Shown here piece by piece: positions 39,292-56,252 of a DNA stretch of 64,000 nucleotides; the stretch's first letter is position 1; every line of letters starts with the position of its first letter. This DNA is from an uncultured Acidobacteriota bacterium (GTDB lineage Bacteria; Acidobacteriota; Vicinamibacteria; Fen-336). The position numbers and the translations under genes were made by a program. The DNA lies in NCBI GenBank assembly GCA_963818355.1, contig CAWFSB010000039.1:45052-109051 (forward strand), read 5' to 3'. The notes beneath the pieces are model-generated. The model worked only from the letters and a program-made list of their open reading frames with translations. It was not told where the DNA came from and did not search any database.

Positions 39292-40726
39292 ATGGACACG
39301 CCGCTTCGCCACTTTCTGGAGATCCCGTACGAGCAGCTGGAGGAGATGAACCTCCAGGCCAAGGCCGACCGCGTGGCCCGCAAGGACCCGGGCAAGATCC
39401 GCGACGCGCGGATGAAGTACCTGACCGACGAGAAGCGCATCAAGGCGGTGACCGTCTGCTTCACCGACCTCGAGGGCCGCTTCCACATGCTCGACTACGA
39501 CAAGAAGTTCCTCCTGAAGTCGGCCGACAACCTCACCTTCGACGGCTCGTCGATCCGCGGCTTCTCCCGCCAGGCCGAGTCGGACCTGCGGCTCGGGCAT
39601 CGACTGGCCGGCCTTCTACTGGCTGCCCGCCGACGTGTTCGGGCCCGGCAAGGTGCTCGTCTTCGGCGACGTCTGCGACCAGGACGGCACGCCGTACGAG
39701 GGCGACCTGCGCGCCCGGCTCAAGGCCTTCGCCGCCGAGCTGGCGAAGAAGGACATGGTGGCCCACGTCGCGAACGAGATCGAAGGGTTCATCTTCAAGG
39801 GACGAGACGCCGAGCGGCGCTACTTCGAGACCGGCCAGTTCGAGTACCCCTCGACCGGCGGCTACTACCACTCGCTGCCCGGGGACACCCTGCGCAAGTT
39901 CATCGACACCTCGGCCGAGGTGCAGCGGGCGCTCGGGTTCGGGAACGAGAAGGACCACCCCGAGGTGGCCCCCTCGCAGTTCGAGATGAACTACGGTTAC
40001 AGCGAGGCCACGGTCGGCGCCGACCAGGTGCAGCTGTACAAGCTGATCGCCCGCCAGGTGGCGGCGCAGATGGACCTGACCGCGTCCTTCCTGCCCAAGC
40101 CGGTGGCCAACGTGAACGGCAACGGCTGCCACACGAACATGTCGATCGCGAAGAAGGGCAAGAACCTCTTCTACGACAAGAAGGGCCAGGACGGGCTCTC
40201 CACCTTCGCCTGGAGCTTCATCAACCGGATCCTGGCGAACGGGAACGACATCTGCCTGATCCTCAACTCCAGCGTGAACTCGTACCGCCGGCTCGACCCG
40301 CACTTCGAGGCCCCGAACCAGATCAAGGTCTCGCCCTCGGACCGCGGCTCGATGATCCGCATCCCGATCGGCAACGAGCGCACCGCCCGCATCGAGGTCC
40401 GCTCGATCGCCCCCGACGCGAACCCGTACCTCGCGATCTACTCGCTCTTCAAGACCGGCCTCGAGGGCCCGGGCAACGGCGACGACAACGACGGCAAGCG
40501 CCAGCGCACGCGCTTCCTGCCCGACAACATCTACGACGCCATCCGCCTCTTCAAGGGCAGCAAGTTCGCGCAGGAGCTGCTGGGCGAGACGGTGCACGAG
40601 AAGTACGCCGAGCTGAAGCTGGCCTCGGCCGAGCGGTGCGCCAAGGCCCTCGGCGCGCGCGTGAAGCGCAGCGAGATCCAGTTCCACCACGAGGTCACGA
40701 ACCAGTACCTCTGGGGGCAGTTCTAG
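39292..40726 (+). CDS. glnA: glutamine synthetase-family protein (frame disrupted near 39600)
   Basis: GAGGAGAGG lies upstream of ATG 39292. The N part is ORF 39292.., the main body ORF 39635..40726. Catalytic patterns FEMNYGYS, FLPKPVANVNGNGCHTNMS, NSYRRL, SMIRIP, RIEVRS. Confidence 0.85.
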
Positions 40727-40846
40727 CGAAGCGACCCGGGCCGGGCTCCCCGGTCCGGGCGGGCAAGGGGGTGGCGGGCGAACGGCCCGCCGCCCCGTCT
40801 CCCAGAGGCGCGCTCGGCGGACGCCGATCTGCGGTAATCTCCACCG

Positions 40847-41730
40847 ATGGCCGAGCGCATCGTCGTCTCCCTCACCAGCGCGGACCAGGAGTACCAGGCG
40901 TTGCAGGGTGAGGACGCCCGCGAGGCGGGCCGGCGGGTGGGCGTCGACGTCGAGGTCCTCTTCGCCGAGGACAACGGGGTGCTGCAGATCCAGCAGCTGT
41001 TCCGCTGCGATGCATGCGCGCGAAGGAGAGCGGCCGGCGGCGCTCCTCGATCCACACGCGCGTCGCCGACGGGCTCGAGCGGGTCGCGAAGAACGCGGCC
41101 CGGGCCGGCGTCGGTTGGTTCCTCCTCAACCGCACCGCGCCCTACGTGGACGCCTTGACAGGCGAGCGCCCGCGACTCGCGATCGCGGCGGTGACCACCG
41201 ATCACGTCGAGGTCGGGCGGATTCACGCCCGCCAGCTCGAGCGGCCTCTGCCCGGACGGATCGTCACGTGCTGTACGTGCAGGGGCCGGCGGACGACGTC
41301 CGCGGGCCAGCCTGCGGCTCAGAGGCCTTCGAGGAGGCGTCGCGCGGGCGGTCCGTACGACCTCAAGGTGGTGAACGGCGAGTGGACGGCGGCGAGCGCG
41401 GAGAAGGCGGTCAACGCCGTGGCTGCGACTGCGAGACCTCGGAGCACTTCCGCCCCGCGCGCGGTGGTGTGCCAGAACGACAACATGGCGCGGGGGGCCG
41501 AGAACGGCCCTCGGCGGCCTGCGGTCGGAGTGGGGTCGCGTGCCGTTCCTAGGCTGCGACGGGCTGCCGAAGGGAGGGAAGCTCGACGTGGACGAGGGCC
41601 GCCTCGCGGCGACGGTCACGATGCCTTCTGCGCCAGCCCCGCGGTCGACCTCGCGGTGAAGTGGATCCGGGCCGGCGCGGTCCCGCCGGCCCAGACCGTC
41701 CTCGCGCCCTCCGCCTACCCCGCGCGGTAG
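40847..41730 (+). CDS. periplasmic-binding-protein type I (sugar-binding/LacI-core-like) protein, heavily frame-disrupted (at least 4)
   Basis: MAERIVVSLTSADQEYQALQGEDAREAGRRVGVDVEVLFAEDNGVLQIQQL... then GVGWFLLNRTAPYVDAL, AAVTTDHVEVGRIHARQ, VVCQNDNMARGA, ...VDLAVKWIRAG. These pieces lie in ORFs 40847.., 40908.. and 41014..41730. I see no signal peptide or HTH. Confidence 0.5.
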
Positions 41731-41757
41731 GCCCGCGGGCTATGATGCCCGCAGCCC

Positions 41758-43496
41758 GTGAGCCCACAGCCCCCGCCGACCCCGCCTTTCGCCCTCGTCC
41801 AGGACGGCGGCCGCTTCCTGCTGTTCGAGGCGCCGCTCGCGACGATCGAGGCGCGTGACGCGGCGGGCGTGCGCGCGGCGCTCGAGGAGGCGGACGCGGC
41901 GCTCGCCTCGGGCCGCTTCGTGGCGGGCTTCCTGGCCTACGAGGCGGCGGCGGCCTTCGGCTTCGCGACCCGGCCGCCCGATCCCGACGGGCCCCCGCTC
42001 GTCTGGCTCGGGGTCTTCGAAGCGCCGCGCGAGGCCGAGCCGCCGCGGGCCGACCCGGGCGCCCCGGCCCCGGTCGCGCGCTGGGAGCCCGCCCTCGACG
42101 AGGCCGGCCACGCCGGGGCCCTCGCCCGCATCCACGAGAGCATCGCCCGGGGCGACACCTACCAGGTCAACTTCACGTTCCCGCTCCGCGCCCCGCTCGC
42201 CGAGGAGCCGCTCGCGCTCTTCGCCCGGCTGCTGGCGACGCAGCGCCCCCGCCACGCGGCGCTCGTGGACCTCGGCCGCTTCGCGGTGGTGTGCGCCTCG
42301 CCGGAGCTGTTCTTCCGCCTCGAGGGGGGGCGGATCACCACGCGGCCGATGAAGGGGACGGCCCCGCGGGGGCTCACCGTGGAGGAGGACGAGGCCCAGG
42401 CCGCCGGCCTGCGCGAATCGGAGAAGGAGCGGGCCGAGAACCTCATGATCGTGGACATGCTGAGCAACGACCTCGGGCAGGTGGCCGAGGTCGGCAGCGT
42501 GGAGGTGCCCGCGCTCTTCGAGGTCGAGCGCTACCCGACGCTCCTGCAGATGACCTCGACCGTGACCGCCCGCAGCCGTGCCCCGCTCTCGGAGCGTCCT
42601 GGCGGCGCTGTTCCCCTGCGCGTCGGTCACCGGCGCGCCGAAGAAGCGCACGATGGAGATCGTCGCCGCCGCCGAGGCCGCTCCCCGCGGCGTCTACACC
42701 GGAGCGGTGGGCTGGGCGGGCCCCGACGGGACCGCCTCGTTCGGCGTCGCCATCCGCACCGTCCTCGCCGACCGCGAGCGGGGCCTCGCCAGCTTCGGCG
42801 TCGGCAGCGGGGTGGTGGCCGACTCGACGGCCGCGCGCGAGTACGAGGAGTGCCTGCTCAAGGCCCGCATCCTCGACGCGCCGGCCTTCGCGCTCGTCGA
42901 GACGATGGCCTTCCACCCCGGCGAGGGCTACCGCCGGCTCGAGGGCCACCTCGCCCGGCTCGCCCAGTCCGCGAGGCACTTCGCCTTCCCCCTCGACATG
43001 CGGCGGGTCGAGGAGGCGCTGCGGCAAGCCGGGGCGGCGGGGACGCCCCTGCGGGCGCGGCTCCTCCTGCACGCCGACGGCCGGGTCGAGGTGCAGGGCA
43101 GCGCCCTGCCCCCGGCGCCCACCCGCCCGCTGCGCGTCGGGATCGCCGCGCGCCCCGTGGACCCCGCGCAGCGTCTGGCTCCACCACAAGACCACCCGCC
43201 GCGAGATCTACGACGCGGCCGTCGCCTCGCGCCCCGACTGCGACGACGTGCTGCTGTGGAACGACCGCGGCGAGCTCACCGAGTCGAGCGTCGCCAACGT
43301 GATCGCCGAGGTGGGCGGCCAGAGGCTCACCCCGCCCCTCGCCTGCGGGGTCCTCCCCGGCGTCGAGAGGGCGCGCGCGATCGCGGAGGGGCGCGCGCGC
43401 GAGGCCGTCGTCCGCCTCACCGACCTGCGGCCCGGCCAGCGGCTCTGGCTCGTGAGCTCGCTGCGCGGCGTGCGGGAGGCCCGGCTGGTCGGCTGA
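41758..43496 (+). CDS. fused aminodeoxychorismate synthase component I / aminodeoxychorismate lyase-like (PabB-PabC) protein (2 frame disruptions: ~42595, ~43170)
   Basis: Chorismate-binding motifs GDTYQVNFT, SPELFFR, TTRPMKGTAPRG, EKERAENLMIVD, PCASVTGAPK, GVYTGAVGW. A class-IV aminotransferase-like C-terminal domain follows (HHKTTRREIYD, LLWNDRGELTESSVANVI, GVLPGVERA). Confidence 0.8.
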
Positions 43497-43547
43497 CGGG
43501 GCGCCTCCGGCGCGCGGCTATACTCGACGGAACGGGTAGCCATTCCA

Positions 43548-44760
43548 GTGCCAAGGGTTCGCCGCGCCGTCGCCTTCGCCATCACCGCCCTCGGCGTGTG
43601 CCTCGCCGCGGCTGGCGCCCGCGCGGCGGAGCCCGTCTCCTTCCTCGGTGGTCGCGTGCGCCTCGGCGGCGAGGTGAGCGGGACGATCGCGCCCGACGAC
43701 CACGGCTGCTTCAACTACAGCGACTACGAGGTGAGCACCCTGCGCCTCTTCCGGGTGGACCTCGCGGCCGAGGCGCGCGCTCGCGTCCTTCGCCTCGGTG
43801 CTCTTCGACGTCCGCAGCGACAACCTCGAGGCGCCGCGCGTCTACGCGCTCTACCTCCGCCTGCGGCCGTGGGCGGCCCGCGAGCTCGACCTCCAGGCCG
43901 GCCTCGTGCCGCCGGTGTTCGGCGCCTTTCCGCGGCGGCGCTACGCCTCGGACAACCCGCTGCCCAGCGTGCCCCTCGCCTACCAGTACCTGACGAACCT
44001 GCGCGAGGACGCGGTGCCGTCGCGGTCGGAGGAGCTCGTCGCCCAGCGCGGCCGCGGCTGGCTGGTGCGCTACCCGGTCGGCTCGCCCGAGCCCGGGCCG
44101 GGCCTGCCGCTCGTGAACGGCGAGCGGTGGGACACCGGCGTGCGAGCTGCGGCTCGGCCGCGAGCCCACTGTCCCTCGCGCTGGCCGTCACCCAGGGGAC
44201 GCTCTGCTACCCGCGGGTGAGCGACGACAACGACGGCAAGCAGGTCTCGGGCCGCCTCGCCTGGACGCCGTCGCCGGCGCTCGTGGCCGGGGTCTCGGGC
44301 GCCGCGGGCGAGTTCCTCGCGCGCGAGGTGCAGGACGTCCTTCCGGCGTCCGCGCAGGGCACCTACCGGCAGAAGGCGGCGGGCCTCGACCTCCAGTGGT
44401 CGTCCGGTTACTGGATCGTGCGCGCGGAAGCCGTGTGGAGCCGCTGGAACCTGCCCGCGCTCGAGGCCACGAGGATCGAGGAGCCGCTCGACGCCCTGGG
44501 CGTCTACGCCGAGGCGCGCTACAAGATCCGGCCCGGGCTCTACGCCGCGGCTCGCGTCGAGCGGCTGGGGTTCTCCGAGCTCCCGAGCGCGGCCGGCCGG
44601 CGAACGTGGGACGCGCCGGTGACGCGGGTCGAGGCCGGCGCCGGCTTCTCGCCGTGGCGGTACGTCCTCGCTCAAGGCCTCGTGGCAGCACAACTGGCGC
44701 GACGGGGGCGCGGTCCGGCAGAACGACCTCGTGGCCGGGCAGGTGGTCCTGTGGTTCTGA
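43548..44760 (+). CDS. putative outer-membrane beta-barrel protein, family not recognised (3 frame disruptions: ~43780, ~44140, ~44680)
   Basis: GTG 43548. Signal peptide MPRVRRAVAFAITALGVCLAAAGARA. Alternating beta-strand-like segments. C-terminus ...NDLVAGQVVLWF* (TGA 44758-44760). Confidence 0.55.
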
Positions 44761-45431
44761 GAGGCGCGCTCGCCGTGACGCTCGGCCTCCTCGCCTCGGC
44801 CGCCGCCCCCGCGCAGGTGACCAGAGCGGCGGGCGGCGTCATTCGCGGCCGGGTGGAGGTCCGCCGCGAGCCGGGCGCGGCCGAGGGGCGCCCGGCCGTG
44901 GCCGAGCTCGGCCGCCACGGCCCGCGCGACGCGCCGGACCGCCGGCGCAGCGTCGTCTACCTGGAGGACGGCGCCCCAGGCCGCGTTCGAGGCTCCCGCC
45001 CCCGGCCGCGCCGTCCTCGACCAGCGCGAACGAGGCGTTCGTCCCCTACGTGCTCGCGCGTGACCGTGGGGAGCACGGTGGACTTCCCGAACAGCGACCG
45101 CTTCTACCACAACGTGTTCTCGCTCTCGAAGCCGAGACGGTTCGACCTCGGCCGCTACCCGAGCGGCCAGTCGCGCTCGGTGCGCTTCGACCAGCCCGGG
45201 CGTCGTGCGCGTCTTCTGCGAGATCCACTCCCACATGAGCGCCTTCATCCTCGTCTTCGCGCACCGCTACTTCGCGACCACCGACGCCGAGGGCCGCTAC
45301 CGCATCGAGGGCGTCCCGCCCGGGCACGTACACGCTCGCCGTCTGGAACGACGGCGCAGGTGCGCGCGCGCCGGGAGGTCCGGGTGGTCGCGCCCGGGCG
45401 ACGTGGTCGAGCAGGACTTCCGGTCGAGTGA
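44751..45431 (+). CDS. exported cupredoxin-like protein with amicyanin-type ligand pattern plus a carboxypeptidase-regulatory-like C-terminal part (at least 3 frame disruptions)
   Basis: GTG 44751 overlaps the barrel gene by 10 nt. Signal MVLRGALAVTLGLLASAAAPAQ. VTVGSTVDFPNSDRFYHNVFS...VRVFCEIHSHMSAFILV (His...Cys-x2-His-x2-Met). Then TTDAEGRYRIEGVPPG.Y.LAVWNDG. Stop TGA 45429-45431. Confidence 0.6.
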   Translation: MVLRGALAVTLGLLASAAAPAQVTRAAGGVIRGRVEVRREPGAAEGRPAVAELGRHGPRDAPDRRRSVVYLEDGAPGRVRGSRPRPRRPRPARTRRSSPTCSRVTVGSTVDFPNSDRFYHNVFSLSKPRRFDLGRYPSGQSRSVRFDQPGRRARLLRDPLPHERLHPRLRAPLLRDHRRRGPLPHRGRPARARTRSPSGTTAQVRARREVRVVAPGRRGRAGLPVE

Positions 45432-47150
45432 TGGCGCGACCCCTCGGCTCGCTCCGCTCGCGCGTCTTCGCGGCCACCGCGCTCGTGGCCGTGCTGCCCA
45501 CCGCCCTGGCCCTCGGCCTCGCCACGCGCCGGGTGACCCAGGAGGCCGAGGCGGAGCTCGCGCGCGGCCTCGGGGAGGCGGTGCGGCTCGTCGAGCAGTA
45601 CCACCGGGCGCGGCTCGAGACCGGCGATGGAGCGCGCCTCGCTCGTCGCCGACCTGCCCAAGCTCAAGGCCGCGGTCGCCGAGGCCGACCCCCGCACCGC
45701 CGAGCCCGTCGCGCGGGACTACCGCGACCGCGTGCGCTCGGACGTGCTCGTGCTGACCGACCGCGACGGGCGGACCCTCGTGTCGCTCGGGGCGGACGCC
45801 GCCGGCTGGACGGACCTCGCCCGGCCGTTCCGGGTGGAGCGCGGGCGGCTCCTCGAGACGGTCGACGCCCCGATCCTCCTCGGGGCCGAGGCCCCGGAGG
45901 TGCTCGGCCATCTCACGCTCGGCTTCGCTCTCGACGACGCGTTCGCGGCGCGCCTGCGCGCGCTCACCGGCAGCCACGTGGCGGTCGCGATGGAGCGGAC
46001 GCGTGTTCGCCTCGACGCTGCCGCGCCGCGACGACGCGGCCCTCCTGGCGGCCGCCGGGGGCACGGGGGTGCGCGAGGGTCGACCTGGAGGGCGAGGAGC
46101 ACGCGGGCCTGAGCGCGGCGCTCGGCGCGGGCGCGACGGCACCTCTCGTCCTCGTCCTGCGGTCCCGCGCGGAGGCGCTGCGCCCGCTGCGCACGCTGCG
46201 CACGGCGCTCGCGGTCGCCGCGCTCGTCGCCGTGGGCCTGGGACTGCTCCTGAGCTGGGCCCTCGCGCGCACGGTCACGCGGCCGCTCGCCGCCCTCACC
46301 GACGCGATGAAGGAGATCGCGGCGACCGGCGACCTCGGCCGCCGCCTCGGGCCCGGCCGGCCCTGGGACGACGAGGACGCCCGGCTCGTGGCGCGGACCT
46401 TCGGCGCCCTCACGGACTCGATCGCGCGCTTCCAGCGCGAGGCCGCGCTGCGCGAGCGGCTCTCCGCGCTCGGCCGCCTGTCCACCGTGATCGCCCACGA
46501 GGTGCGCAACCCGCTCATGATCATCAAGGGGTCGCTGCGGACGCTGCAAGCGGGAGGGGCCACGGCCAGCGAGGTCCGGGAGGCGGCGGCCGGACATCGA
46601 CCACGAGGTGGCGCGCCTCGACCGCATCGTGGGCGACGTGCTCGACTTCGCGCGGCCGCTGCGCGTCGAGCGGGCGCCGGTCGACGTCGCCGCGCTCGCG
46701 CGGGACGCGGCGCGGGCCGCCCTCGAGGGCGCGGACGGCCTCGGCGGCGCGCTTCGCGCTCGAGCCCTCCGCGGGCACGATCGTCACCGACGGCGAGCGG
46801 CTGCGCGGCGTCCTCGTCAACCTGGTCGAGAACGCCCGCGAGAGCCTGGCCGCGCGCCGGCCGGTCGGGCGGGGAGGCGATCGAGATCGGCGCCCGCGGG
46901 CTCGAGCGCGGGGGCGTCCTCCTCTGGGTCGAGGACCGCGGCCCCGGGATGCCCCCGGCGGACCTCCCGCACGTCTTCGAGCCGTACTTCACGACGAAGC
47001 GCACGGGCACGGGCCTCGGCCTCGCGATCGCCCGCAAGGTCGTCGAGGCTCTCGGGGGGACGATCCGGATCGAGAGCCGCGAGGGCGAGGGCACGCGGGT
47101 CGAGATCGAGCTGCCGGCGGAGGCGCCGCGCGCCCACGGAGGTGCGATGA
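45431..47150 (+). CDS. sensor histidine kinase (at least 6 frame disruptions)
   Basis: The ATG at 45431 is embedded in GTGATG, overlapping the upstream stop. N-terminal TM helix, a periplasmic-size region, a second TM helix ([20 protein letters not shown]) and a HAMP-like segment. H-box [21 protein letters not shown]-box [12 protein letters not shown]-boxes VEDRGPGMP and [18 protein letters not shown]. The probable stop TGA 47148-47150 overlaps the next ATG. Confidence 0.8.
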
Positions 47151-48520
47151 GCTCACCCGCGCGGCAGCATCCTCCTCGCCGACGACGAGGAGGGCATCCT
47201 CAAGACGCTCGGCCGGGCGCTGCGCGAGGACGGCCACGACGTCACGGCCACCGCGAGCGCCGCCGAGGCGGCAGCGGCTGCTCGCCGAGCGCCCGTTCGA
47301 CGTCTTCGTCGTGGACCACCGGATGCCGGGGCGCACCGGCCTCGAGCTCATCCGCGACCTCGCGGCGGCGGTGCCGGAGGCGGAGCGGCCGCAGGTCCTC
47401 ATGATGACCGCCCACGCCACGGTGGAGAACGCCATCGAGGCGATGAAGCTCGGCGCCTACGACTACCTGCAGAAGCCGTTCGAGGTGGACGAGCTGCTCG
47501 TGGCCGTGCGCCGGGCGCTCGAGCACCAGAGCCTCAGCCGCCAGCACCGGTACCTGCTGGCCGAGCGCGAGGAGGACTTCGACCACTACGGCATCGTCGG
47601 CAAGAGCCGCGCGGTCGAGGAGCTGCTGCGCAAGATCGAGCTCGTGGCGCGGTCCAAGAGCACGGTGCTCGTCACCGGGGAGACCGGCACCGGCAAGGAG
47701 CTGGCGGCGCGGGCCATCCACGCCCGCAGCGCCCAGCGCGACATGCCGCTCATCAAGGTGAACTGCGCGGCCATCCCGGAGGCGCTCCTCGAGTCGGAGC
47801 TCTTCGGCCACGTGAAGGGCGCCTTCACCGGCGCCACCGCCAACCGCCGGGGCCGCTTCGCCCTCGCCGACGGCGGGACGATCTTCCTCGACGAGATCGG
47901 GACCCTCGCCCTGCCCGTGCAGGCGAAGCTGCTGCGCGTCCTGCAGGAGCGGGAGTTCGAGCCGGTGGGCTCCGAGCGCACGGAGTCGGTGGACGTGCGC
48001 GTGATCGCGGCCACGAACCGCGACCTGCGGGCGATGGTCGCGGACGGGCGCTTCCAGGAGGACCTCTTCTACCGCCTGAGCGTCATCCCGATCGAGCTGC
48101 CGCCGCTGCGCGAGCGGCCGGAGGACGTGCCGCTGCTCGTCGAGCACTTCGTGCGCAAGCACGCGCAGCGGATGGGGCGGCGGATCGACGGCATCGAGCC
48201 GACGGCCCTCGAGCGGCTCGCGGCCTACCGCTGGCCGGGCAACGTGCGGGAGCTCGAGAACGCGATCGAGCGGGCGGTCGTGCTCGCCACGGGGACCGTG
48301 ATCGACGCCGCCGCCATCTCGATGGTGGAGCCGCCCGCCGCGCCGGCCGCCGGGCGCCCTGCCCTCGGTGCGCCTGCACGAGAACGTCGAGTGGGCGGAG
48401 CAGGAGTCGGTGCGGCGCGCCCTGCGGCAGGCGGGCGGCGTCAAGAAGGACGCGGCCGAGCTCCTCGGCATCAGCCAGCGCGCCCTCAGCTACTACCTGG
48501 GGAAGTACAAGATCGAGTAG
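47147..48520 (+). CDS. sigma54-dependent (NtrC-family) response regulator (3 frame disruptions: ~47160, ~47270, ~48360)
   Basis: REC domain ([33 protein letters not shown]). AAA+ sigma54-interaction domain ([49 protein letters not shown]). Fis-type [25 protein letters not shown]. Confidence 0.9.
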
Positions 48521-48524
48521 GTCC

Positions 48525-48547
48525 CGACCCGCGTGAAACGCGGGTCG
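48525..48547 (+). terminator. hairpin terminator-like element (family CGACCCGCG..CGCGGGTCG-ATCTGG)
   Basis: CGACCCGCG-tgaaa-CGCGGGTCG followed by ATCTGGC, 4 nt after the response-regulator stop. Nearly identical to the element at 26866-26888. Confidence 0.55.
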
Positions 48548-48617
48548 ATCTGGCCGCGTCGTGCGCTCCTCATGAGAAGGCCCGATCGAAGGCCCCGATG
48601 AAGGCTTGGCGCAGTTG

Positions 48618-48676
48618 CCGTACGCCATGGCGACGGGCTTACCGCCTCCGTAACCCGTTACGAGCGGCGTAAGCCC
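48618..48676. promoter_or_regulatory. palindromic elements upstream of the sigma54 promoter (candidate enhancer/UAS)
   Basis: Perfect 10-bp palindrome CGCCATGGCG at 48623-48632. A 42-nt imperfect palindrome at 48635-48676 (GGGCTTAC..CGTAAC-cc-GTTACG..GTAAGCCC). Both lie 50-110 nt upstream of the -24/-12 element. Confidence 0.45.
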
Positions 48677-48725
48677 GCGACGCGGTCTGCGCCCGCATCT
48701 CGCTGATTCGCAACGACCGGCCCTC

Positions 48726-48741
48726 GGGCACGCGACTTGCC
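48726..48741 (+). promoter_or_regulatory. sigma54 (-24/-12) promoter
   Basis: GGGCACG-cgac-TTGCC with GG at 48727-48728 and GC at 48739-48740, which is the consensus spacing of TGGCACG-N4-TTGC. It lies 30 nt upstream of the TTG start at 48771 and just downstream of a sigma54-dependent activator gene. Confidence 0.7.
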
Positions 48742-48770
48742 TCTCGTGACTGGCACATGGAGGCAACGGC

Positions 48771-49146
48771 TTGAGGAAGCGACTTCTCGGGGTTCTGCCG
48801 TGGACTGCCGTCCTGGGCCTGCTGCCCACCGGCGCGGCCTCGTCCGCCGCCGAGGCGGCGCAGCGGTTCGAGGTGACGGCGTCGCGCTACGCGTTCGACC
48901 CCGCGCGGATCGAGGTGCGGCAGGGAGACGTCGTCGAGCTCGTGCTGCGCTCCGCGGACACCGACCACGGCCTCGCGATCAAGGCCTACGCGGTGAAGGT
49001 CGCGATCCCGAAGGGCGGCGAGACCGTGGGGGTCTCCTTCGTGGCCAGCCGCGCCGGGACCTTCCCGATCGAGTGCTCGGAGTACTGCGGCTCGGGCCAC
49101 AAGCGGATGAAGGGCGAGCTCGTGGTGACGGAGAGGGCCGCAGTGA
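48771..49146 (+). CDS. exported CuA-type (cytochrome oxidase subunit II-like) cupredoxin-domain protein; 3' end uncertain
   Basis: GGAGG is 7 nt upstream of TTG 48771. Signal MRKRLLGVLPWTAVLGLLPTGAASSAA. FEVTASRYAFDPARIEVRQGDVVELVLRSADTDHGLAI...FPIECSEYCGSGHKRMKGELVV (His...Cys-x3-Cys-x3-His-x2-Met). No clean in-frame stop, so an indel is assumed near 49125-49146. Confidence 0.65.
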
Positions 49147-50078
49147 GGGCCGCGGGTCTCGTCGCCGGCTCTGGCTCTCCTGGCGTGGCTCGGGCTCCGG
49201 CGCGCTGCCGCGCCTCGGCCGACGACCCGCGCCGTCCCGTGCCGCGCGAGCGCGCAGGCCGCCACCGCGCCCGCGCCTGCCCGCCTACGACGAGGACCTC
49301 GACGCCGATCCCGGCCGAGCCCGACTTCAACGTCATCACCCTGCCGACGAACCTGCGGCTGCCGAAGCACAAGCTCGCCTTCCGCCTGACCCACCGCTTC
49401 GCGCGGGCGCTCGGCGAGGGGAGCTTCGGCGACCTCGCTCGCGACTTCTTCGGCTTCGACGGCGGCGCCCAGATCGGCTTCGGCCTGCGCTTCGGCCTCT
49501 TCCGCGGCACGCAGCTCGGGATCTACCGCACGAGCGACCGCACGATCCAGCTCTCACGCCCAGCAGGAGCTGCTGCGCGAGGGCAAGCGCCCGGTCGGCC
49601 TCTCGGTCGTGGCCTCCGTCGAGGGGCTCAACAACTTCGGCCTCTCCTCGGCGCCGGAGGGCGCGACGCTCCACGAGTTCTCGCCGTCGGTGGCGCTCGT
49701 CGTCTCGCGCCGCCTGGGCACGAGGGCGCCGTCTACGTGGTGCCCTCCTGGGTCGGGAACACGCGCATCACCCCGTCGGCCCCCGGCGACCGAGGACGGG
49801 ACGCTCGTCCTCGGCCTCGGCGCGCGGCTGCGCCTGACGAAGACGATGTCGCTCGTCGGCGAGGTCCACCCGCGCCTCGCCGGCTACGCGGGCGACCTCG
49901 GCTCGGGCGACCCGGCCTCGCTCGCGACGTTCGGCGTCGAGTGGCGCGTGGGCGGGCACGCGTTCCAGATCAACTTCTCGAACGCCCTCGGCACGACGCC
50001 GGCGCAGGTGGCGCGCGGGGCAGCAGGGGCGTCGAGGGCTGGTTCATCGGCTTCAACCTGACGCGCAAGTTCTATTGA
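49143..50078 (+). CDS. beta-barrel protein, DUF5777-like (at least 4 frame disruptions; 5' end uncertain)
   Basis: Pieces join to ...DFNVITLPTNLRLPKHKLAFRLTHRFARALGEGSFGDLARDFFGFDGGAQIGFGLRFGL.., ..VYVVPSWVGNTRI.., ..TFGVEWRVGGHAFQINFSNALGTTPAQ.., GWFIGFNLTRKFY*. A signal-like segment ALALLAWLGL occurs near 49170-49200. Confidence 0.5.
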   Translation: MRAAGLVAGSGSPGVARAPARCRASADDPRRPVPRERAGRHRARACPPTTRTSTPIPAEPDFNVITLPTNLRLPKHKLAFRLTHRFARALGEGSFGDLARDFFGFDGGAQIGFGLRFGLFRGTQLGIYRTSDRTIQLSRPAGAAARGQAPGRPLGRGLRRGAQQLRPLLGAGGRDAPRVLAVGGARRLAPPGHEGAVYVVPSWVGNTRITPSAPGDRGRDARPRPRRAAAPDEDDVARRRGPPAPRRLRGRPRLGRPGLARDVRRRVARGRARVPDQLLERPRHDAGAGGARGSRGVEGWFIGFNLTRKFY

Positions 50079-50090
50079 TGGAGGACGCGA

Positions 50091-50497
50091 ATGAAAGGAA
50101 GACGAAGACGCCTCGACCGCCGCGAGTTCACGCTGGCCTCGGCCCTGGCCATCCTGAGCGGCGTCGCGATCACGATCACGTCGGCCTGCGGCGGCGGGGG
50201 CAGCTCGCCGTCCACGCCGAGCACGCCCACGCCGACCCCGACGCCGAGGCCGACGCCGGCCGCCGCCGGCGACAAGATCGGGGTCGTGGCTCAGCAACCA
50301 CGGGCACGCGCCGTGATCACCGCCGCCCAGCTGACGGCCGGCGGGCGCGCTCAACCTCGACATCCGGGGCACGCCGACCACACCCACACCGTCGAGCCTC
50401 GCGCGCGGCCGAGGTCACCTCGATCGCGGCGAACCAGCACGTGTCGAAGGAGTCGAGCACCGACAGCGCGCACAGCCACACCGTCACGTTCAACTGA
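50091..50497 (+). CDS. Tat-signal lipoprotein with three H-x-H motifs, unknown function (at least 3 frame disruptions)
   Basis: MKGRRRRLDRREFTLASALAILSGVAITITSAC (twin-Arg plus lipobox), then a Pro/Thr/Ser linker. Reconstructed core ..LSNHGHAPVITAAQLTAGGALNLDIRGTADHTHTVELSRAEVTSIAANQHVSKESSTDSAHSHTVTFN*. Confidence 0.55.
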
Positions 50498-50519
50498 CCG
50501 GTCGCCTTCCGTGATCGCC

Positions 50520-51315
50520 ATGTCGAGGCGCCGCGCCGCCCTCGTCGTTGCGGGGCTCGCCGCGCTCAGCGGGGCGGCGGGCGTCGCCTGGTGGCGGTCG
50601 CACGCCGTCGGCGCCGGTGCAGCGGGGCGCGCGTCTCGCCGCCGAGCGTGGCTGCCTCGGTTGCCACGGGCCGGCGGGGCGCCTCGCCGACCCCGACGGC
50701 ACGCGCGGGATCGGCAGCGTGCCCTCGTTCGAGCACGACGACGTGACGGGCTACGCGAAGAGCGAGGACGAGATCCGCGAGTGGATCCTCGACGGGAAGC
50801 CGCGGCGCCTGCGCGAGGCGCGCGAGCGACGAGCCGGAGCCGCTCCTCGCGCATGCCCGCGTGGCGCGGCCGCCTGTCGCCCGCGAGGTCGATCACGCTC
50901 GTCGCCTACGTGAAGGCCGTCTCCGACTTCGACCCCGCTGCCGGACGCCGCGCCGGCGGGCCGGGACGCCGCCGCTCGCCTCGGCTGCTTCGCCTGCCAC
51001 GGGCCGCAGGGCCGCTTCGACACGCCGAACCCCGGCTCGCTCAAGGGCTACGTCCCGTCGTGGAGCGGGCCGGACTTCCCGGAGCTCGCGCGCGACGACG
51101 GCGAGATCCGCGAGTGGATCCGCGACGGCAGCCCGAGGCGTCTCCGCGAGAACCCGGTGGCGGCCTTCTTCCTCCGCCGCCAGGCGATCCGCATGCCCGC
51201 CTACGGCGACCGGGTGAGCGAGGACGAGATCCGGCGGATCATCGCCTACATCGGCTGGCTGCGAGGAGGCGGGCCCTCCCCGGCGCCGCTGAGCCGCGTG
51301 CGCCCCGTCCTTTGA
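50520..51315 (+). CDS. membrane-anchored dihaem c-type cytochrome (at least 4 frame disruptions)
   Basis: ATG 50520. N-terminal anchor MSRRRAALVVAGLAALSGAAGVAWW. Two CxxCH motifs (CLGCHGP in ORF 50548..50913, CFACHGP downstream). Each is followed by a similar ...DEIREWI.DG.PRRLRE... segment. Stop TGA 51313-51315. Confidence 0.7.
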
Positions 51316-51347
51316 GGCCGGGCGGCAAGTGTGCTACACCGGGCAGG

Positions 51348-51662
51348 ATGAGCGAAGACAAGCGAACGTCGCCCCGCGTCTACAACGTGGTCGAGGTCGA
51401 CTGCCACACGATCGACGAGTCGCCGACCCTGGTCGCCGCCCGCATGAGCGACGTCTCCGCGACCGGCGCGTTCCTCGACTCGATGAGCGGCCTCCAGGCG
51501 GGCACGAAGCTGGCCCTGCGCTTCAAGGCGGGGGAGCAGGAGATCCGCGTCGCCGCGGAGGTCATGCACATGATGCCGAGCTTCGGCATGGGCGTGCGCT
51601 TCCTGAACCTCTCGGGAGAGGGCCGCGCCGCGATCGAGGCCCTGATCAGGGAGCAGGGCTGA
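51348..51662 (+). CDS. PilZ-domain protein (104 aa)
   Basis: ATG 51348, intact to 51662. RTSPR (RxxxR) and DVSATG (DxSxxG) motifs with the usual spacing. Confidence 0.75.
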   Translation: MSEDKRTSPRVYNVVEVDCHTIDESPTLVAARMSDVSATGAFLDSMSGLQAGTKLALRFKAGEQEIRVAAEVMHMMPSFGMGVRFLNLSGEGRAAIEALIREQG

Positions 51663-54008
51663 CCGGCCGGACGATCCGCACCTCGAACACCGCCCCGGTC
51701 GAGCTGCCCGGCCCGGTCCGGAAGCCGACGCGGAGCGCGCTCCGGCCGCGGGTGAGCCGCTCGGGGAGCGGGTACTCCACCTGCAGGACCTCGCCCGGCC
51801 GGTCGTCGAAGAGCGACTGCGTGGCGATCGCCTCGCCCTCGACGAGCGACCTCGAAGCGGTGGCGGCGCGACTCGCCGCCCCAGTAGGCGACGCGCAGCG
51901 CCGCCGGGCCCTCCGCGGGGAGGCGGAGGGAGTAGGCGAACGTCCCGCCGGAGCGGGCGCCGCGGCAGCTGCGGCCCTCGAGCGACCAGGCGTCCGAGCC
52001 CGTCTCCTCGAGGTCGTGCGCGCCTTCTCGGCCTCGGGCCGGCCCGCCTCGACGCCGTCCACGGTGCGCGCGTCGATCGCCGCCCGCGCCCGCGCCGCGG
52101 CTCCGGCGCGCGCCTCCCGCTCGGCCCAGCGCCGCCGGGGTCAGCACGTCGAAGTAGACCGAGTAGCGCCGGTCCGCCAGGCGGAAGAACGGCCGCAGGT
52201 CGACGTCGCGCGGCCGGCCGAGGCCGTCCGTGCGGAAGCGAGAGGACCGGGGGCCGGCTTCACGCGGGCCAGGGCCTCGGCCGGGCTCGCGGCGACGAGC
52301 ACCGGCGCCGGCGGCAGCTCCTCGAGGCGCACCTCGGGGGCCGACGGCCCGTACCGCGCCCTGGCGTCGAGGCCCTCCGCGCCGAGGTCGGCGGCCAGCA
52401 CGATCGGGCCGAAGAGGAAGGCGCCCCGGGCCGGGTCGTCGGGCGTCGGCTCGAACCGCAGGCTCATGGGCAGGCGCACCTCGACCACGTCGCCGTCGCG
52501 CCACTCGCGCTCGACCGTCGCGTACGAAGCCGGGCCGGCTCTCGACGGGCTGCGCCTGCGCCGTTGACGCTCACCTCGAGGCCGTCCGTCGCCCAGGCCG
52601 GGTGGCGCAGGCGCAGGGCGAAGCGCGCCGGCTTCTCGAGGCGCAGGACGAGCCGCGTCCCGTCCTCGTCGGGGAAGCGCGTCTCCTGGCGCAGCGACGA
52701 GGCCCTTCTCCTGCCACGTGAGCTCGGAGGCGAGGAAGAGGTTCACGAGGAGCGCGTCGCCCTGGCGCGCGTAGATCGCCTCGCCGTAGCGGGCCGGGTT
52801 CTCCATCCCGGTCCCCACGCAGCACCAGAACGAGTCCTCGGGCGTCGAGTAGGTGCGCCAGGCCCCCGGCTTCGAGCGCGACGTAGTAGGTGACCATCCC
52901 CGTGGCCGGGTCCTGCGAGGCGAGGATGTGGTTGAAGAGGCCGCGCTCGTAGAAGTCGATCCGCGCCGGGTCGGCGTCCCGCAGGAAGAGGCGGCGCGTG
53001 AGCTTCAGCATGTTGTAGGTGTTGCAGGTCTCGGCGGTGGACTCGCCGAGGTGGCGCGAGAGGTGCGCGCACCGGGGAGAAGTGCTCGTCCTCGCTGTGG
53101 CCGCCGATCGCGTAGGAGCGGTGGAGCGCGACGCGCTGCCAGAACGTCTCGGCGACCGCGCAGTAGCGCGGCTCGCCGGTCAGCTCGCAGTCGCGGGCGG
53201 CGCCGATCGCCTTCGGGATCTGGGTGTTCGCGTGCAGGCCGTCGAGCGGGTCCTCGCCGCGGGCGAGCGGGTCGAAGACCGCGCGGTGGTCGAAGAGGCG
53301 GGCGAGGCGCAGGTGCTCCGGGGTCGCCGGTCGTGACGTAGAGCTCGGTGAGGACGTCCTCCATCCCGCCGAACTCGGTCTCGAGCATCGCCTGCCACTG
53401 CGCGTCGGTCGAGGCGCTTCGCGCGGAGGCCCACCCACGCGGCCATGCCCTTCACGACCTCGAGCGCCGCCGGGTCGCCGGTCGCCCGGTGCACGTCGAG
53501 GAGGCCGGCCATGATCTTGTGGAGCGTGTAGTAGGGCGCCCAGACGCCCTTGCGGGCCTCCACGCGGTCGAAGAGCTCCTCGGGGAAGGCGGAGAGGTAG
53601 CCCGGGTGCATGCCGCGCGCGGGGAGCGCCTGCTGCACCTTCCGCAGCTCCGCGACGATCGCCGAGGGCGCGGGCCTTCAGCCGCTCGTCGCCGGTCGCC
53701 TCGTACAGGAGCGCGCAGGCGGTCAGGTAGTGGCCGAGGCTGTGGCCGCGCAGCTCGACGCTCGGCGCCTCCCAGCCGCCGTACGGCTTCGCCGTGGTCG
53801 GCAGCCCGGCGTTGAGGCGGAACGTGTGGAGCAGCCGGTCGGGGTCGAGGCTCAGGAGGTAGGCGAGGTCCCGCTGCTGCGCGTCGCGGAACGGCCCGTC
53901 GAGGATCCGCACGTCGCGCAGGGGGAACGTCTGGGCCGCCGGCGGCACCGGCGCCGCCGCGACCGAGGGAGCCCGAGCGAGGCCATCGCATGGACGCAAC
54001 GACCACAC
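51646..54008 (-). CDS. GH127-family (DUF1680, beta-L-arabinofuranosidase-like) glycoside hydrolase with an extra C-terminal domain (at least 7 frame disruptions; 5' end uncertain)
   Basis: Joined pieces are FPLRDVRILDGPF, GHSLGHYLTACALLYEATGD, YYTLHKIMAGLLD, HANTQIPKAIGAA, YAIGGHSEDEHF, STAETCNTYNMLKL, DSFWCCVGTGMENPARYGE, LPMSLRF...FGPIVLA, then a C-terminal part ending ...AVFEVRIVRPV... It converges on and slightly overlaps the PilZ gene. Confidence 0.75.
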
Positions 54009-54055
54009 GCGAATCGCATGCCGCGATTATCATGTCTCCGGCAACAGGAGTGACC

Positions 54056-55681
54056 ATGCGAAAGCTCGTCGAGTGCGTGCCGAACTTCTCGGAGGGCCGC
54101 GACCGGGCCGTGATCGACGCGATCGCCGACGCGATCCGGGCGACCGCCGGGTGCACCCTGCTCGACGTGGACCCCGGCGCGTCCACGAACCGCACCGTCT
54201 ACACCCTCGTCGGCGCGCCCGACGGCCGTGGTCGAGGGCGCTCTCGCCGCGGCGCGCGTCGCCCGCCTGCGGATCGACATGCGGACGCAGAAGGGCGAGC
54301 ACCCCCGGGTGGGCGCGATGGACGTCTGCCCGTTCGTCCCGGTCTCGGGCGTGACGATGGACGACTGCGTGGCGCTCGCGAACGAGTTCGGCCGGCGCGC
54401 GGCCGCCGAGCTGGGCGTCCCCGTCTACCTCTACGGCCACGCGGCGAGGGCCGACCACCGCCGCACGCTCCAGCAGATCCGGGCGGGGGAGTACGAGGCG
54501 ATCCCCGACCGGATCGGGAAGCCGGAGTGGACGCCCGACTACGGCCCGGCCGAGTTCGTGCCGCAGTGGGGCGCCACGTGCGCGGGTGCGCGCGACTTCC
54601 TGATCGCCTACAACGTGAACGTGCTCGGGACGAAGGAGCAGGCCCACCGCATCGCGCTGAACGTGCGCGAGCAGGGCCGAGGCCCCGGCGAGCCGGGGCG
54701 GCTGAAGGCGGTGCGCGCGATCGGGTGGTGGGTCGAGGAGTACGGCCTCGCCCAGGTCTCGATCAACCTCGAGGACTACAAGACGACGCCGCCGCACGTC
54801 GGCCTTCGAGGCCTGCGCGGAGGAGGCGAGGGCCCTCAACCTCGCCGTGGCCGGCTCGGAGCTCGTGGGCCTCATCCCGCTCGCAGGCGATGCTGATGGC
54901 GGCCGAGCACTACGTCGCGAAGGAGAACCTCTTCGTCCTCGACGAGCGGCAGAAGATCCGCCTCGTGGTCGAGCGGCTCGGCCTCTCGTCGGTGCAACCG
55001 TTCGTCCCGGAGAAGCGCATCATCGAGTACATGATCCCGAAGGACGACGACGAGCCGCTCGCCTCGATGAGCGTGCGCGGCTTCGTGGAGCTCCTGGGCT
55101 CGCGCACTCCGGCCCCCGGCGGGGGCTCCGCCGCCGCGCTCATCGCCGCGATGGGCGCGGCACTCGGGGCCATGGTGGGCTGGATGACGTACGGGAAGCG
55201 GAAGTTCGAGGCGCAGGACCCCGCGATGCGCCGCCTCATCCCCCCGCTCCACGAGGGGATGAAGGCCCTCCTGCCGCTCATCGACCGCGACACGCGGGCC
55301 TTCGACGCCTACCTCGCCGCGGTCGGGATGCCGAAGGAGACGACCGAGGAGAAGGCCGCCCGCCACGTGGCGATGCAGGACGGCCTCAAGGCCGCGGTGC
55401 AGGTGCCGCTCGAGGTGATGCGCACCGCCGACCGGTGCTGGGAGGCGATGGCCGAGATGGGCGCGCACGGCAACCCGGCCTCGCGCTCGGACCTCGAGGT
55501 GGGAGCCAAAGCCCTCGAGGCCGGGATCTGGGGCGCGTTCCGCAACGTGGCCATCAACCTGCCCGGGATCGAGGACGAGCCGTTCCGCAAGGCCACCGCC
55601 GAGGAGGCGGAGGCGCTCGCCGCGCGCGCGGCCCTGATGCGGGACCGGGTCCTGAAGGCGCTCGCCGCACGCCCGGCCTGA
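54056..55681 (+). CDS. bifunctional glutamate formimidoyltransferase / formiminotetrahydrofolate cyclodeaminase-like protein (3 frame disruptions: ~54225, ~54800, ~54880)
   Basis: AGGAG is 6 nt upstream of ATG 54056. [40 protein letters not shown]-type segments, then a cyclodeaminase-like C-terminal half ([24 protein letters not shown]...NLPGI). Confidence 0.8.
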
Positions 55682-55688
55682 GCCGCAC

Positions 55689-56252
55689 ATGTGCGACGAC
55701 GACGCGCCCGGCGTCGAGGCGGGCACCCTCCGCGTCTTGCTCGCGCTCAACGCCGCGATGTTCGCGGTCGAGGTCGTGGCGGGGTGGCTGGCCCAGTCCA
55801 CCGGCCTCCTCGCCGACTCGCTCGACATGCTCGCAGACGCAGCCGTCTACGGGCTCGCCCTCCACGCCGTAGGTCGCCCGCCGGGGCTGAAGCTCCGTGC
55901 CGCGCACGCGAGCGGATGGCTGCAGCTCGCGCTCGCGTGCGGGGCCTTCGCCGAGGTCGCCCGTCGTGCCCTCCGGGGCAGCGCGCCCGAGCCGCCCACG
56001 ATGATCGGCGTGTCGCTCGTCGCCCTTGCCGCCAACGTGACCTGCCTGGTGCTGATCCACCGCCACCGGCACCGGGGCGCGCACATGGAGGCGAGCTACA
56101 TCTTCTCGACCAACGACGTGCTCGCCAACCTCGGCGTGATCGCGGCCGGCGCCCTGGTCGCGTGGACCGGATCCCCGGTGCCCGACCTCGTCATCGGTGC
56201 CGCGATCGCCGGGCTCGTCCTGCGGGGCGCGGTCCGGATCCTGAAGCTCTAG
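55689..56252 (+). CDS. short cation-efflux (CDF)-like membrane protein, transmembrane domain only (187 aa)
   Basis: ORF 55689..56252 is intact. LADSLDMLADAAVYGLAL and FSTNDVLANLGVIAAG resemble CDF TM2/TM5 metal-site helices. No C-terminal cytoplasmic domain. Confidence 0.6.
   Translation: MCDDDAPGVEAGTLRVLLALNAAMFAVEVVAGWLAQSTGLLADSLDMLADAAVYGLALHAVGRPPGLKLRAAHASGWLQLALACGAFAEVARRALRGSAPEPPTMIGVSLVALAANVTCLVLIHRHRHRGAHMEASYIFSTNDVLANLGVIAAGALVAWTGSPVPDLVIGAAIAGLVLRGAVRILKL

Follow-up and report, generated by a model that had tools for sequence, protein, structure and literature searches.

A CuA-type cupredoxin coupled to an outer-membrane barrel under predicted sigma54 control in Vicinamibacteria: a candidate envelope electron-transfer cluster

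CuA and type-1 copper sites are dedicated electron-transfer centres. The rus chain of Acidithiobacillus is composed of Cyc2, a monohaem cytochrome-porin with 16 strands, followed by rusticyanin, the dihaem cytochrome Cyc1 and an aa3 oxidase. Vicinamibacteria are among the commonest soil Acidobacteria; to our knowledge, almost nothing is known of their envelope redox biology, and we know of no iron-oxidation phenotype for them. A second described system is the copper-induced curA operon of Myxococcus xanthus, which is served by CorSR, a HAMP kinase with a periplasmic sensor and a sigma54-dependent NtrC-type regulator (PMC3707914). The products of this operon are a Cupredoxin_1 protein, a His-rich protein, a PF13442 cytochrome c, CuoA, CopA and PQQ_2 and DUF305 lipoproteins (PMC3707914). 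Here, we describe a cluster of nine plus-strand genes in a 64-kb stretch of DNA (the window) from an uncultured bacterium of the Vicinamibacteria, and compare it with these systems.

The gene cluster is real, widely conserved and uncharacterized. Comparison of about 160 related loci, from metagenome-assembled genomes (MAGs) of Vicinamibacteria and other Acidobacteriota and from metagenomes, suggests that it is divided into two units: a sensing operon (barrel1, cup1, a sensor histidine kinase and an NtrC-family activator) and a sigma54 operon (cupA and DUF5777). The central feature, which was absent from a first-pass annotation of the window, is the pairing of the CuA-type cupredoxin CupA with the DUF5777 barrel, together with a conserved enhancer. 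We favour the reading, to which we assign a probability of roughly 0.55, that the cluster is an inducible envelope electron-transfer module of two transcription units at the outer membrane, operating by the mechanism proposed below. The loci were collected in two sets. A DUF5777-based scan with one genome per species gave 80 genome loci, nearly all of them labelled Acidobacteriota or Vicinamibacteria; the few that are otherwise labelled are taken as mislabelled. A metagenome scan seeded on CuA motifs gave another 80 loci. The per-gene counts given below cover only those loci with enough flanking sequence.

The CuA cupredoxin and its barrel partner

Two genes form the core of the sigma54 operon:

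48771 to ~49146, plus strand: cupA, a CuA-type cupredoxin, soluble and periplasmic, with a Sec signal peptide; no internal frame errors
~49143-50078, plus strand: the DUF5777 outer-membrane beta-barrel, with about 12 predicted strands and ending in ...RKFY; six frame errors

The cupA product scores above the Pfam cut-offs for both Cupredoxin_1 (31.4 bits; cut-off 27) and COX2 (24.5 bits; cut-off 22). Its ligand pattern, H-x35-CSEYCGSGHKRM, fits H-x34/35-C-x-E-x-C-x3-H-x2-M, and the protein aligns over its full length with the soluble CuA fragment of the T. thermophilus ba3 oxidase (E=1e-9), with all ligands matched (CNQYCGLGHQNM against CSEYCGSGHKRM). Across 41 loci, these ligands are conserved to at least 90%. 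CupA is thus predicted to carry a complete binuclear CuA ligand set, consisting of His, Cys, the backbone carbonyl of Glu/Gln, Cys, His and Met. It is a stand-alone secreted protein of 124 aa that lacks a Cys lipobox, and its frame runs to the stop codon (TGA, 49144-49146) only if one base error is assumed close to the 3' end. The fold and the pattern H-x35-C-x-E-x-C-x3-H-x2-M are those of the CuA domains of haem-copper oxidase subunit II and nitrous-oxide reductase. Nevertheless, CupA differs from both in that it lacks transmembrane helices, a subunit I partner and the NosZ propeller. Its assignment as CoxB was rejected (37 bits against an NCBIfam cut-off of 147.7), as it has a signal peptide only and the locus holds no subunit I gene. 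The best NCBIfam match is the NosZ CuA domain, but this assignment also fails (50 against 625 bits), and nitrosocyanin and CopI were rejected far below their NCBIfam cut-offs.

The barrel matches DUF5777 (PF19089) with 107.3 bits against a gathering threshold of 23.1, over positions 5-247 of the 247 in the profile. The family comprises more than 1600 close relatives; when 1.84 billion cluster representatives were searched with a profile, 1420 relatives were recovered at the 50%-cluster level. An AlphaFold2 (AF2) model built from a shallow alignment has about 12 strands with a predicted local distance difference test (pLDDT) score of 50, and gives weak fold matches (TM 0.4-0.5) to the 12-14-stranded FapF, NanC and OmpG, with the Hbp barrel also among the matches. 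From this model, DUF5777 is predicted to be an outer-membrane barrel of about 12 strands.

The evidence that joins the two proteins comes from gene order, gene overlap and gene fusion. In the window, cupA and DUF5777 are two genes with overlapping stop and start; in L002, an intact syntenic copy on a public metagenome contig that served as the reference, the stop of cupA overlaps the start of DUF5777 by 4 nt. cupA is present in 41 of 76 genome loci. Of the metagenome loci, 65 extend far enough upstream to be scored, all of them retrieved by the CuA motif, and 64 of these have cupA at most 1.5 kb ahead of DUF5777, either directly or after a gene for a lipoprotein cytochrome c. Elsewhere, the two are one protein. 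Five single-protein fusions (P0248, P0251, P0253, P0261 and P0288; ~390-400 aa) have an N-terminal cupredoxin with intact CuA ligands followed by DUF5777, and single open reading frames of 400-490 aa encode such fusions on eight contigs (L083, L087-L089, L091, L092, L095 and L110). The fusions come from several independent contigs and from clusters that share less than 50% identity. Since the two proteins are fused in one lineage and translationally coupled in another, there is strong comparative evidence that they would work as a physical pair.

The fusions also bear on a different role for the barrel. DUF5777 could be a translocator or anchor that displays the cupredoxin, or lipoproteins with long linkers, on the cell surface, so that redox chemistry would occur outside the cell on minerals or humic substances. 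Autotransporters and the threading of RcsF through OmpA/C/F are models for such display. The order of the fusions, with a passenger, a linker and a C-terminal barrel of about 12 strands and ~250 aa, is that of type Va autotransporters; the top weak fold match, FapF, is a polypeptide transporter, and Hbp is an autotransporter; the lipoprotein partners of the barrel carry Pro/Thr-rich linkers of 30-40 aa. However, the fold matches are weak and derive from a low-confidence model, no autotransporter Pfam domain was found in the window proteins or the fusions, and CupA is mostly a separate Sec-exported protein, which could not be exported in the manner of an autotransporter passenger. We consider surface display improbable, and prefer a CuA protein that is docked on or fused to the barrel at the periplasmic face.

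The fused genes have a setting of their own. Those on L087, L089, L091 and L110 are flanked by lpxB and queG-like genes, a conserved housekeeping neighbourhood. The flanks of the fused genes contain no two-component system and no redox neighbours, and this context gives no functional clue.

The sigma54 promoter, its enhancer and the sensing operon

The control region and the sensing operon contain the following features:

43548-44760, plus strand: barrel1, a porin-like outer-membrane beta-barrel with a signal peptide and the C-terminus ...LWF, which opens the sensing operon; four single-base frame errors
44751-45431, plus strand: cup1, a secreted type-1 (blue) cupredoxin inside a CarboxypepD_reg beta-sandwich; at least seven frame errors
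45428-47150, plus strand: sensor histidine kinase with HAMP, HisKA and HATPase_c; seven frame errors
47147-48520, plus strand: NtrC-family activator with Response_reg, Sigma54_activat, HTH_8 and GAFTGA; up to seven frame errors
48525-48547, plus strand: hairpin, a perfect 10-bp inverted repeat right after the activator stop codon
48639-48672, plus strand: two TTAC-N7-GTAA palindromes side by side, a putative enhancer (upstream activating sequence), ~55-90 nt 5' of the -24 element
48726-48741, plus strand: predicted sigma54 -24/-12 promoter gGGCACgcgacTTGCc; next come GGAGG, a ribosome-binding site, and the TTG start codon of cupA at 48771

The promoter GGGCACGCGACTTGCC at 48726-48741 has the GG-N10-GC spacing and matches TGGCAC-N5-TTGC. 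It contains the one match to GGCAY-N5-TTGC on either strand of the whole window, at 48727-48740. About 50 of 52 genome loci have an element GGCA(C/T)-N5-TTGC ~90-120 nt past the activator stop (motif score of at least 8 of 11), and it occurs in 110 loci overall. As a control region we used the sequence upstream of barrel1, where a sigma54 motif score of at least 9 of 11 was reached in only one of 34 loci; autoregulation of the sensing operon by sigma54 was rejected on this count.

The palindromes are similarly specific. TTAC-N7-GTAA has exactly two matches in the window against 0.01 expected by chance, and of 97 related loci, 80 have at least one copy in the 130 nt that precede the promoter, compared with none of 291 control windows. 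In an alignment of close relatives, the nested inverted repeat upstream of the promoter resolves into two adjacent palindromes of this form. Such a tandem would be the expected signature of a site for an enhancer-binding protein. The first-pass annotation had proposed a hairpin, palindromes and a well-spaced sigma54 promoter in this interval, and all three are present; the hairpin is terminator-like but has no T-run. Taken together, a regulatory link that runs from the activator through the enhancer and the sigma54 promoter to cupA and DUF5777 is well supported by the comparative evidence. Separately, the stretch between the palindromes and the -24 element (48676-48725; CGCATCTCGCTGATTCGCAACGA) is near-invariant among close relatives, and could be a bending site of the integration host factor type or a site for a further regulator.

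The activator itself has a Sigma54_activat domain at 240 bits (E=1e-71), with Response_reg, HTH_8 and the GAFTGA motif in its sequence. The kinase has two transmembrane segments around a periplasmic domain of ~230 aa, followed by HAMP, HisKA and HATPase_c; no His, Cys or Met of the periplasmic domain is conserved among 23 orthologues. Equivalog assignments were rejected for both proteins: the nearest NCBIfam models to the kinase core are AtoS and ZraS, far below their cut-offs, and those nearest to the activator are AtoC, NtrC and ZraR, all below cut-off.

The kinase is always preceded by a porin-like barrel and cup1. The frame-stitched Cup1 sequence scores 20.8 bits for Pfam Copper-bind (cut-off 21.2), in addition to CarboxypepD_reg, and its ligand set, His...Cys-x2-His-x2-Met on a cupredoxin fold, is of type 1. 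Conservation of the motifs yHNVFS...FCxIHSHM is at least 90% across 38 loci (FCEIHSHM in the window), and the protein aligns with the C-terminal T1Cu domain of the Cu nitrite reductases 9cck and 6hbe as well as with plastocyanin and amicyanin (1bxu, 1id2). The copper ligands of both cupredoxins are therefore at least 90% conserved and align with true CuA and type-1 sites. The Cup1 family has more than 7000 relatives, which are called 'plastocyanin' by JGI. It shares the type-1 ligand set with nitrite reductase-fused cupredoxins, amicyanin and plastocyanin, but it is distinguished from them by its insertion in a CarboxypepD_reg sandwich and by the position of its gene, which stands between those of a porin and a histidine kinase in a regulatory operon. 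For barrel1, no Pfam or NCBIfam family was matched; among ten orthologues there are weak and sporadic matches to Porin_O_P, BBP2 and SlpA_C, which make it porin-like at noise level only. The idea that barrel1 and DUF5777 are paralogues was rejected (hhalign probability 2%).

Two further arrangements involve the sensing proteins. In L163 (7766-13408), barrel1, cup1, the kinase and the activator stand directly before a plastocyanin-like lipoprotein (HEMDSDPHPEHTDCP...CGMHDH), without cupA or DUF5777; since the sensing operon here precedes a lipoprotein cupredoxin alone, the sensing module has other outputs. In L063, L064 (8774-10420) and L067, the gene after DUF5777 encodes a membrane HAMP-adenylate/guanylate cyclase; its periplasmic domain is 26-29% identical to that of the kinase, and a cup1-like gene lies on the opposite strand. 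By this likeness, the kinase-type sensor domain appears to be wired to cyclic-nucleotide signalling in these loci.

Accessory genes, conservation and frame disruption

Three genes follow the barrel in the window:

50091-50497, plus strand: HxH lipoprotein, exported by Tat, with DRREFT, the lipobox ITSAC and, after frame repair, three HxH motifs; five frame errors
50520-51315, plus strand: dihaem cytochrome c with CLGCH and CFACH and an N-terminal membrane anchor, CcoP/c4-like; four frame errors
51348-51662, plus strand: PilZ-domain protein with RTSPR (RxxxR) and DVSATG (DxSxxG) intact; no frame errors

With these, all nine plus-strand genes of the first-pass annotation were recovered at their positions from frame-stitched translations scanned against Pfam and NCBIfam. 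The scans and the ligand alignments also agree with its two distinct copper-centre signatures, c-haems, barrels and PilZ domain. Likewise, the overlaps by which it had chained the first four genes can be read from the junction sequences (GTG..TGA at 44751/44760, GTGATG at 45428-45433 and ATGA at 47147-47150), as can the ribosome-binding sites and stops.

The HxH protein is a Tat-exported lipoprotein in which a Pro/Thr-rich linker leads to a C-terminal beta domain of 70 aa; the sequence DRREFT...ITSAC in the window has the features of a Tat lipoprotein. None of its 725 homologues has a Pfam domain or a name. R9, R10, F12 and all six His of the H-x-H motifs never vary among 30 homologues, most of which also align at the lipobox Cys. 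The AF2 model of the 70-residue domain (pLDDT ~80) has five strands and one helix, with every HxH at the start of a strand. Foldseek returned no PDB fold match for this domain below E=0.28, and a sequence search of the PDB gave only a low-complexity match. The HxH protein likely carries a metal site, and its Tat export hints at metal loading in the cytoplasm. The cytochrome matches Cytochrome_CBB3 and Cytochrom_C over two stretches each, and is ccoP-like at a score below the NCBIfam cut-off. The PilZ domain scores 48.5 bits against 22.5 and is TIGR02266-like.

Conservation separates these three genes from the rest. In tblastn searches of the genome loci with the L002 proteins, the order barrel1-cup1-HK-NtrC-[cupA]-DUF5777, where HK is the histidine kinase, is kept down to 42% DUF5777 identity. 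Of 61 genome loci, 46 have the activator gene at most 3.5 kb ahead of DUF5777, and all four sensing genes are present and colinear in 31 of 51. The barrel gene is succeeded by one for a small lipoprotein in 59 of 78 loci; in only ten of the 78 is this the HxH protein. The slot is occupied in eight of 78 loci by a CHRD-domain lipoprotein (e.g. L079 1847-2368 and L081 864-1379). In distant lineages, the slot beside the barrel holds either a PSCyt1-like lipoprotein monohaem cytochrome c of ~150 aa or a ~142-aa lipoprotein with a weak plastocyanin alignment that includes the His and Cys-x2-His positions. A lipoprotein cytochrome c is encoded upstream of the barrel in 19 of 76 loci; the dihaem cytochrome c was found in 11 of 74 and the PilZ gene in four of 69. 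Six genes and a variable redox lipoprotein thus make up the conserved core. The HxH protein and the dihaem cytochrome c are accessories of one subclade, and the PilZ gene is probably a rare neighbour or bystander, not a member of the system. Thus, co-conservation of the gene set of the first-pass annotation holds for the core, in dozens of species-level MAGs, but not for its last three genes.

The window copy is badly frame-disrupted, which the first-pass annotation had put down to either poor local sequence or a decaying cluster. In its strongest form the second alternative would make these genes pseudogenes, or a chance neighbourhood of unrelated genes, with no functional system at all. The region has a G+C content of ~75%, and the coding frame can be traced because the G+C content at third codon positions (GC3) is 0.9-1.0 in the true frame. 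Frame errors were mapped by protein-to-DNA alignment allowing frameshifts, guided by the proteins of L002. In gene order there are 4, 7, 7, up to 7, 0, 6, 5, 4 and 0 errors, about 40 in 8 kb, mostly one extra base, and part of the events in the activator gene are compensating errors in the reference and not in the window. A six-frame trace of the whole window placed 46 of 87 candidate frame errors within 40-56 kb. The cluster does lie in the most disrupted part of the window, as had been noted, and this density is what speaks for decay; however, because these errors are spread over 40-56 kb, the zone is wider than the cluster and reaches housekeeping genes. Neighbouring genes are hit as well: glnA has one error, the adjacent binding-protein gene 12 and the pabB-like gene two. 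The extra base in glnA acts as an internal control which indicates that the indels are errors.

Single-base repairs restore full-length proteins that are 69-92% identical to those of L002, so the genes are not irreparably broken. No premature stops are left in the nine genes after repair, apart from one flagged in the alignment of the activator, which is probably its start overlapping the stop codon of the kinase. Other observations also disagree with decay: GC3 holds at 0.9-1.0 in the true frame, and the gene order, the promoter and the enhancer are kept in dozens of species-level genomes. A second copy, L001, which is on another contig from the same sample as L002, is fragmented too, which points at assembly quality; both copies are 85-91% identical in DNA to the window, and the relatives come from long-read soil MAG projects. 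As the indels also strike flanking housekeeping genes and repair leaves no premature stops, the sensible explanation is local assembly error in a long-read MAG; decay, or a chance neighbourhood, is very improbable. Of the two explanations that had been offered, poor sequence quality is retained.

Several details of the surrounding sequence can be added. Candidate frame errors run at ~3 per kb in 40000-56000 against ~1 per kb elsewhere, and are mostly single inserted bases at codon boundaries with no obvious link to homopolymers. The 'intact' activator copy of L002 (8119-9495) holds two compensating frame errors (GRVHRRQREPPG... replaces the true letters), so the public contig is likewise imperfect. 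Upstream of the cluster lie glnA (39292-40726; Gln-synt_N/C), with 97% protein identity to the L002 copy and its extra base near 39595, and the binding-protein gene (40847-41730). A fused Chorismate_bind and Aminotran_4 gene (PabB-PabC-like; 41746-43496) stands directly 5' of barrel1, in a synteny kept in L001-L003 and L008. Downstream, at 52000-55700, the minus strand carries a GH127/DUF6805 beta-L-arabinofuranosidase-like gene and the plus strand one for a formiminotransferase-cyclodeaminase; these two are frame-disrupted as well and are syntenic with L001 and L002.

Electron transfer, copper handling and known systems

We read the cluster as an electron-transfer module because CuA and type-1 sites are electron-transfer centres and because c-type cytochromes consistently accompany the operon; the most economical reading has the CuA protein, docked on or fused to the barrel, as the terminal element. 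In the mechanism that we propose, a signal would enter through the porin-like barrel1, and the redox or metallation state of Cup1 would modulate the histidine kinase. The phosphorylated activator would bind the TTAC-N7-GTAA palindromes and open the sigma54 promoter, and the effector operon would then yield the periplasmic CuA cupredoxin, paired with DUF5777 at the periplasmic face of the outer membrane. Variable partners would join this pair: in the window the HxH lipoprotein and the inner-membrane-anchored dihaem cytochrome c, and elsewhere a lipoprotein monohaem cytochrome c and/or a third, plastocyanin-like lipoprotein cupredoxin. Electrons would pass between the respiratory chain, by way of the dihaem or monohaem cytochrome c, and the barrel-docked CuA protein, while a redox substrate from outside the cytoplasm would be admitted or positioned by the barrel; metal ions such as Fe(II), Mn(II) or Cu(I) are the most plausible candidates. 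The whole would be a copper-based analogue of the chain Cyc2 -> cupredoxin -> dihaem Cyc1 -> oxidase, and metal oxidation is possibly the role of the module.

Several points weigh against this proposal. We infer what the substrate is, which way electrons flow and what the barrel does and, from gene order alone, that Cup1 is a ligand- or redox-sensing partner of the kinase. DUF5777 has no redox cofactor motif of its own (no CxxCH), a 12-stranded barrel as modelled is too narrow to hold a folded cupredoxin, and at a pLDDT of 50 the strand number, pore size and any metal site are uncertain. The flanks examined contain no terminal oxidase, multicopper oxidase or known metal oxidase. Regulation is not universal, because the fused forms lie beside lpxB and queG without a two-component system. 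Finally, every locus is a MAG or a metagenome contig, and some of these are error-prone.

The same proteins could instead serve copper homeostasis. The two-component system, with Cup1 as co-sensor, would sense periplasmic copper and induce CupA, the HxH protein, the lipoprotein cupredoxins and DUF5777 as a copper channel, which would sequester, export or import copper in the manner of CopRS/CopI/PcoB or CorSR-curA. Nearly all of the effectors are predicted copper or metal proteins, the six invariant His of the HxH protein resemble a metal-binding surface, and CupA has a faint match to CopI. Furthermore, the copper-induced curA operon of M. xanthus likewise has a sigma54-dependent kinase and regulator, a His-rich Cupredoxin_1 protein and a PF13442 cytochrome c (PMC3707914). 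Copper handling remains a serious rival because of this resemblance, although the multicopper oxidase and CopA of curA are absent from our cluster. Indeed, the examined flanks contain no gene for a CopA-type ATPase, a multicopper oxidase, CusCBA, CopC/D or PcoB/CopB (PF05275). The sensor domain of the kinase has none of the His/Met ligands of CusS-type copper sensors, c-type cytochromes go with the barrel, and the cytoplasmic metal loading suggested by Tat export of the HxH protein would be unusual for a copper scavenger. Most telling is the CuA site, since we know of a complete, conserved CuA ligand set only from electron-transfer sites and not from copper-trafficking proteins, and in CupA the set is complete and strictly conserved. 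We judge copper homeostasis to be less likely than electron transfer but well worth retaining. The hedged reading of the first-pass annotation, an inducible periplasmic electron-transfer or copper/metal-handling module, covers both and stands.

The electron-transfer reading can be carried further. The pair may represent a 'cupredoxin-porin', an unrecognized class of outer-membrane redox protein and the copper counterpart of Cyc2, with which soil Vicinamibacteria would oxidize or reduce extracellular Fe(II), Mn(II) or Cu(I) under a sigma54 circuit with a blue-copper co-sensor. We offer this as a tentative idea that is more probably wrong than right. If true, a copper-based route would be added to the haem-based movement of electrons to and from the cell surface. 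The cluster would in any case give a first functional handle on DUF5777, on the more than 700 HxH lipoproteins and on the more than 7000 plastocyanin/CarboxypepD_reg proteins, which may be redox or copper co-sensors for histidine kinases. It also makes concrete testable predictions, namely the tandem TTAC-N7-GTAA with GGCAC-N5-TTGC and a protein pair, and the sensor architecture and the barrel would be new components even if copper handling proves true.

Each part of the cluster is of a known kind: a two-component system, a sigma54 promoter, cupredoxins and outer-membrane barrels. The first-pass annotation could match the gene set to no characterized system, which still holds. In the searchable literature we found no paper that mentions DUF5777 or PF19089 and no relevant paper on Vicinamibacter with a cupredoxin. 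Cupredoxins of Sideroxydans are up-regulated on magnetite (PMC11429942); we rejected these as relatives because they are of the multicopper-oxidase type and their architecture is unrelated (PMC11429942). The porin-cytochrome conduits MtrABC and Geobacter Pcc resemble the cluster in having a periplasmic redox protein, an outer-membrane barrel and a redox lipoprotein side by side. However, their barrels have 20-26 strands against about 12 here, which is far too small to sheath a redox protein, and their carriers are multihaem proteins, unlike the copper proteins and mono- or dihaem cytochromes of our loci. We found no relationship in sequence.

The closest regulatory analogy appears to be CorSR/curA. 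In both, a kinase and an NtrC-type regulator are encoded among envelope proteins together with a Cupredoxin_1 protein, a His-rich protein, a c-type cytochrome and putative sigma54 promoters. The two differ in that curA has the multicopper oxidase CuoA, the P1B ATPase CopA and the PQQ_2 and DUF305 lipoproteins, which our cluster lacks (no CuoA- or CopA-type domain is present in the window cluster or in the annotations of L001, L002 and L163), whereas our cluster has DUF5777, a porin-like barrel and a CuA ligand set, which curA lacks.

By function, the closest analogy would be the cytochrome-porin Cyc2 and the Acidithiobacillus chain that leads from it to a dihaem cytochrome c. Both systems join a small one-electron redox domain to an outer-membrane barrel, by fusion in a sister lineage and by coupling in the window, and both co-encode a cupredoxin and a membrane-anchored dihaem cytochrome c of the c4/CcoP type. 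Nevertheless, the redox domain of the cluster is a CuA cupredoxin, with no CxxCH in CupA, DUF5777 or the fusions, the barrel has about 12 predicted strands instead of 16, oxidase genes are not adjacent and control is by a sigma54 two-component system; the likeness drawn to Cyc2 is one of architecture. As far as the searchable literature shows, three features set the cluster apart from all of these systems: the coupling or fusion of a stand-alone CuA protein with an outer-membrane barrel, the presence of a blue-copper protein within a sensing operon, and the HxH domain.

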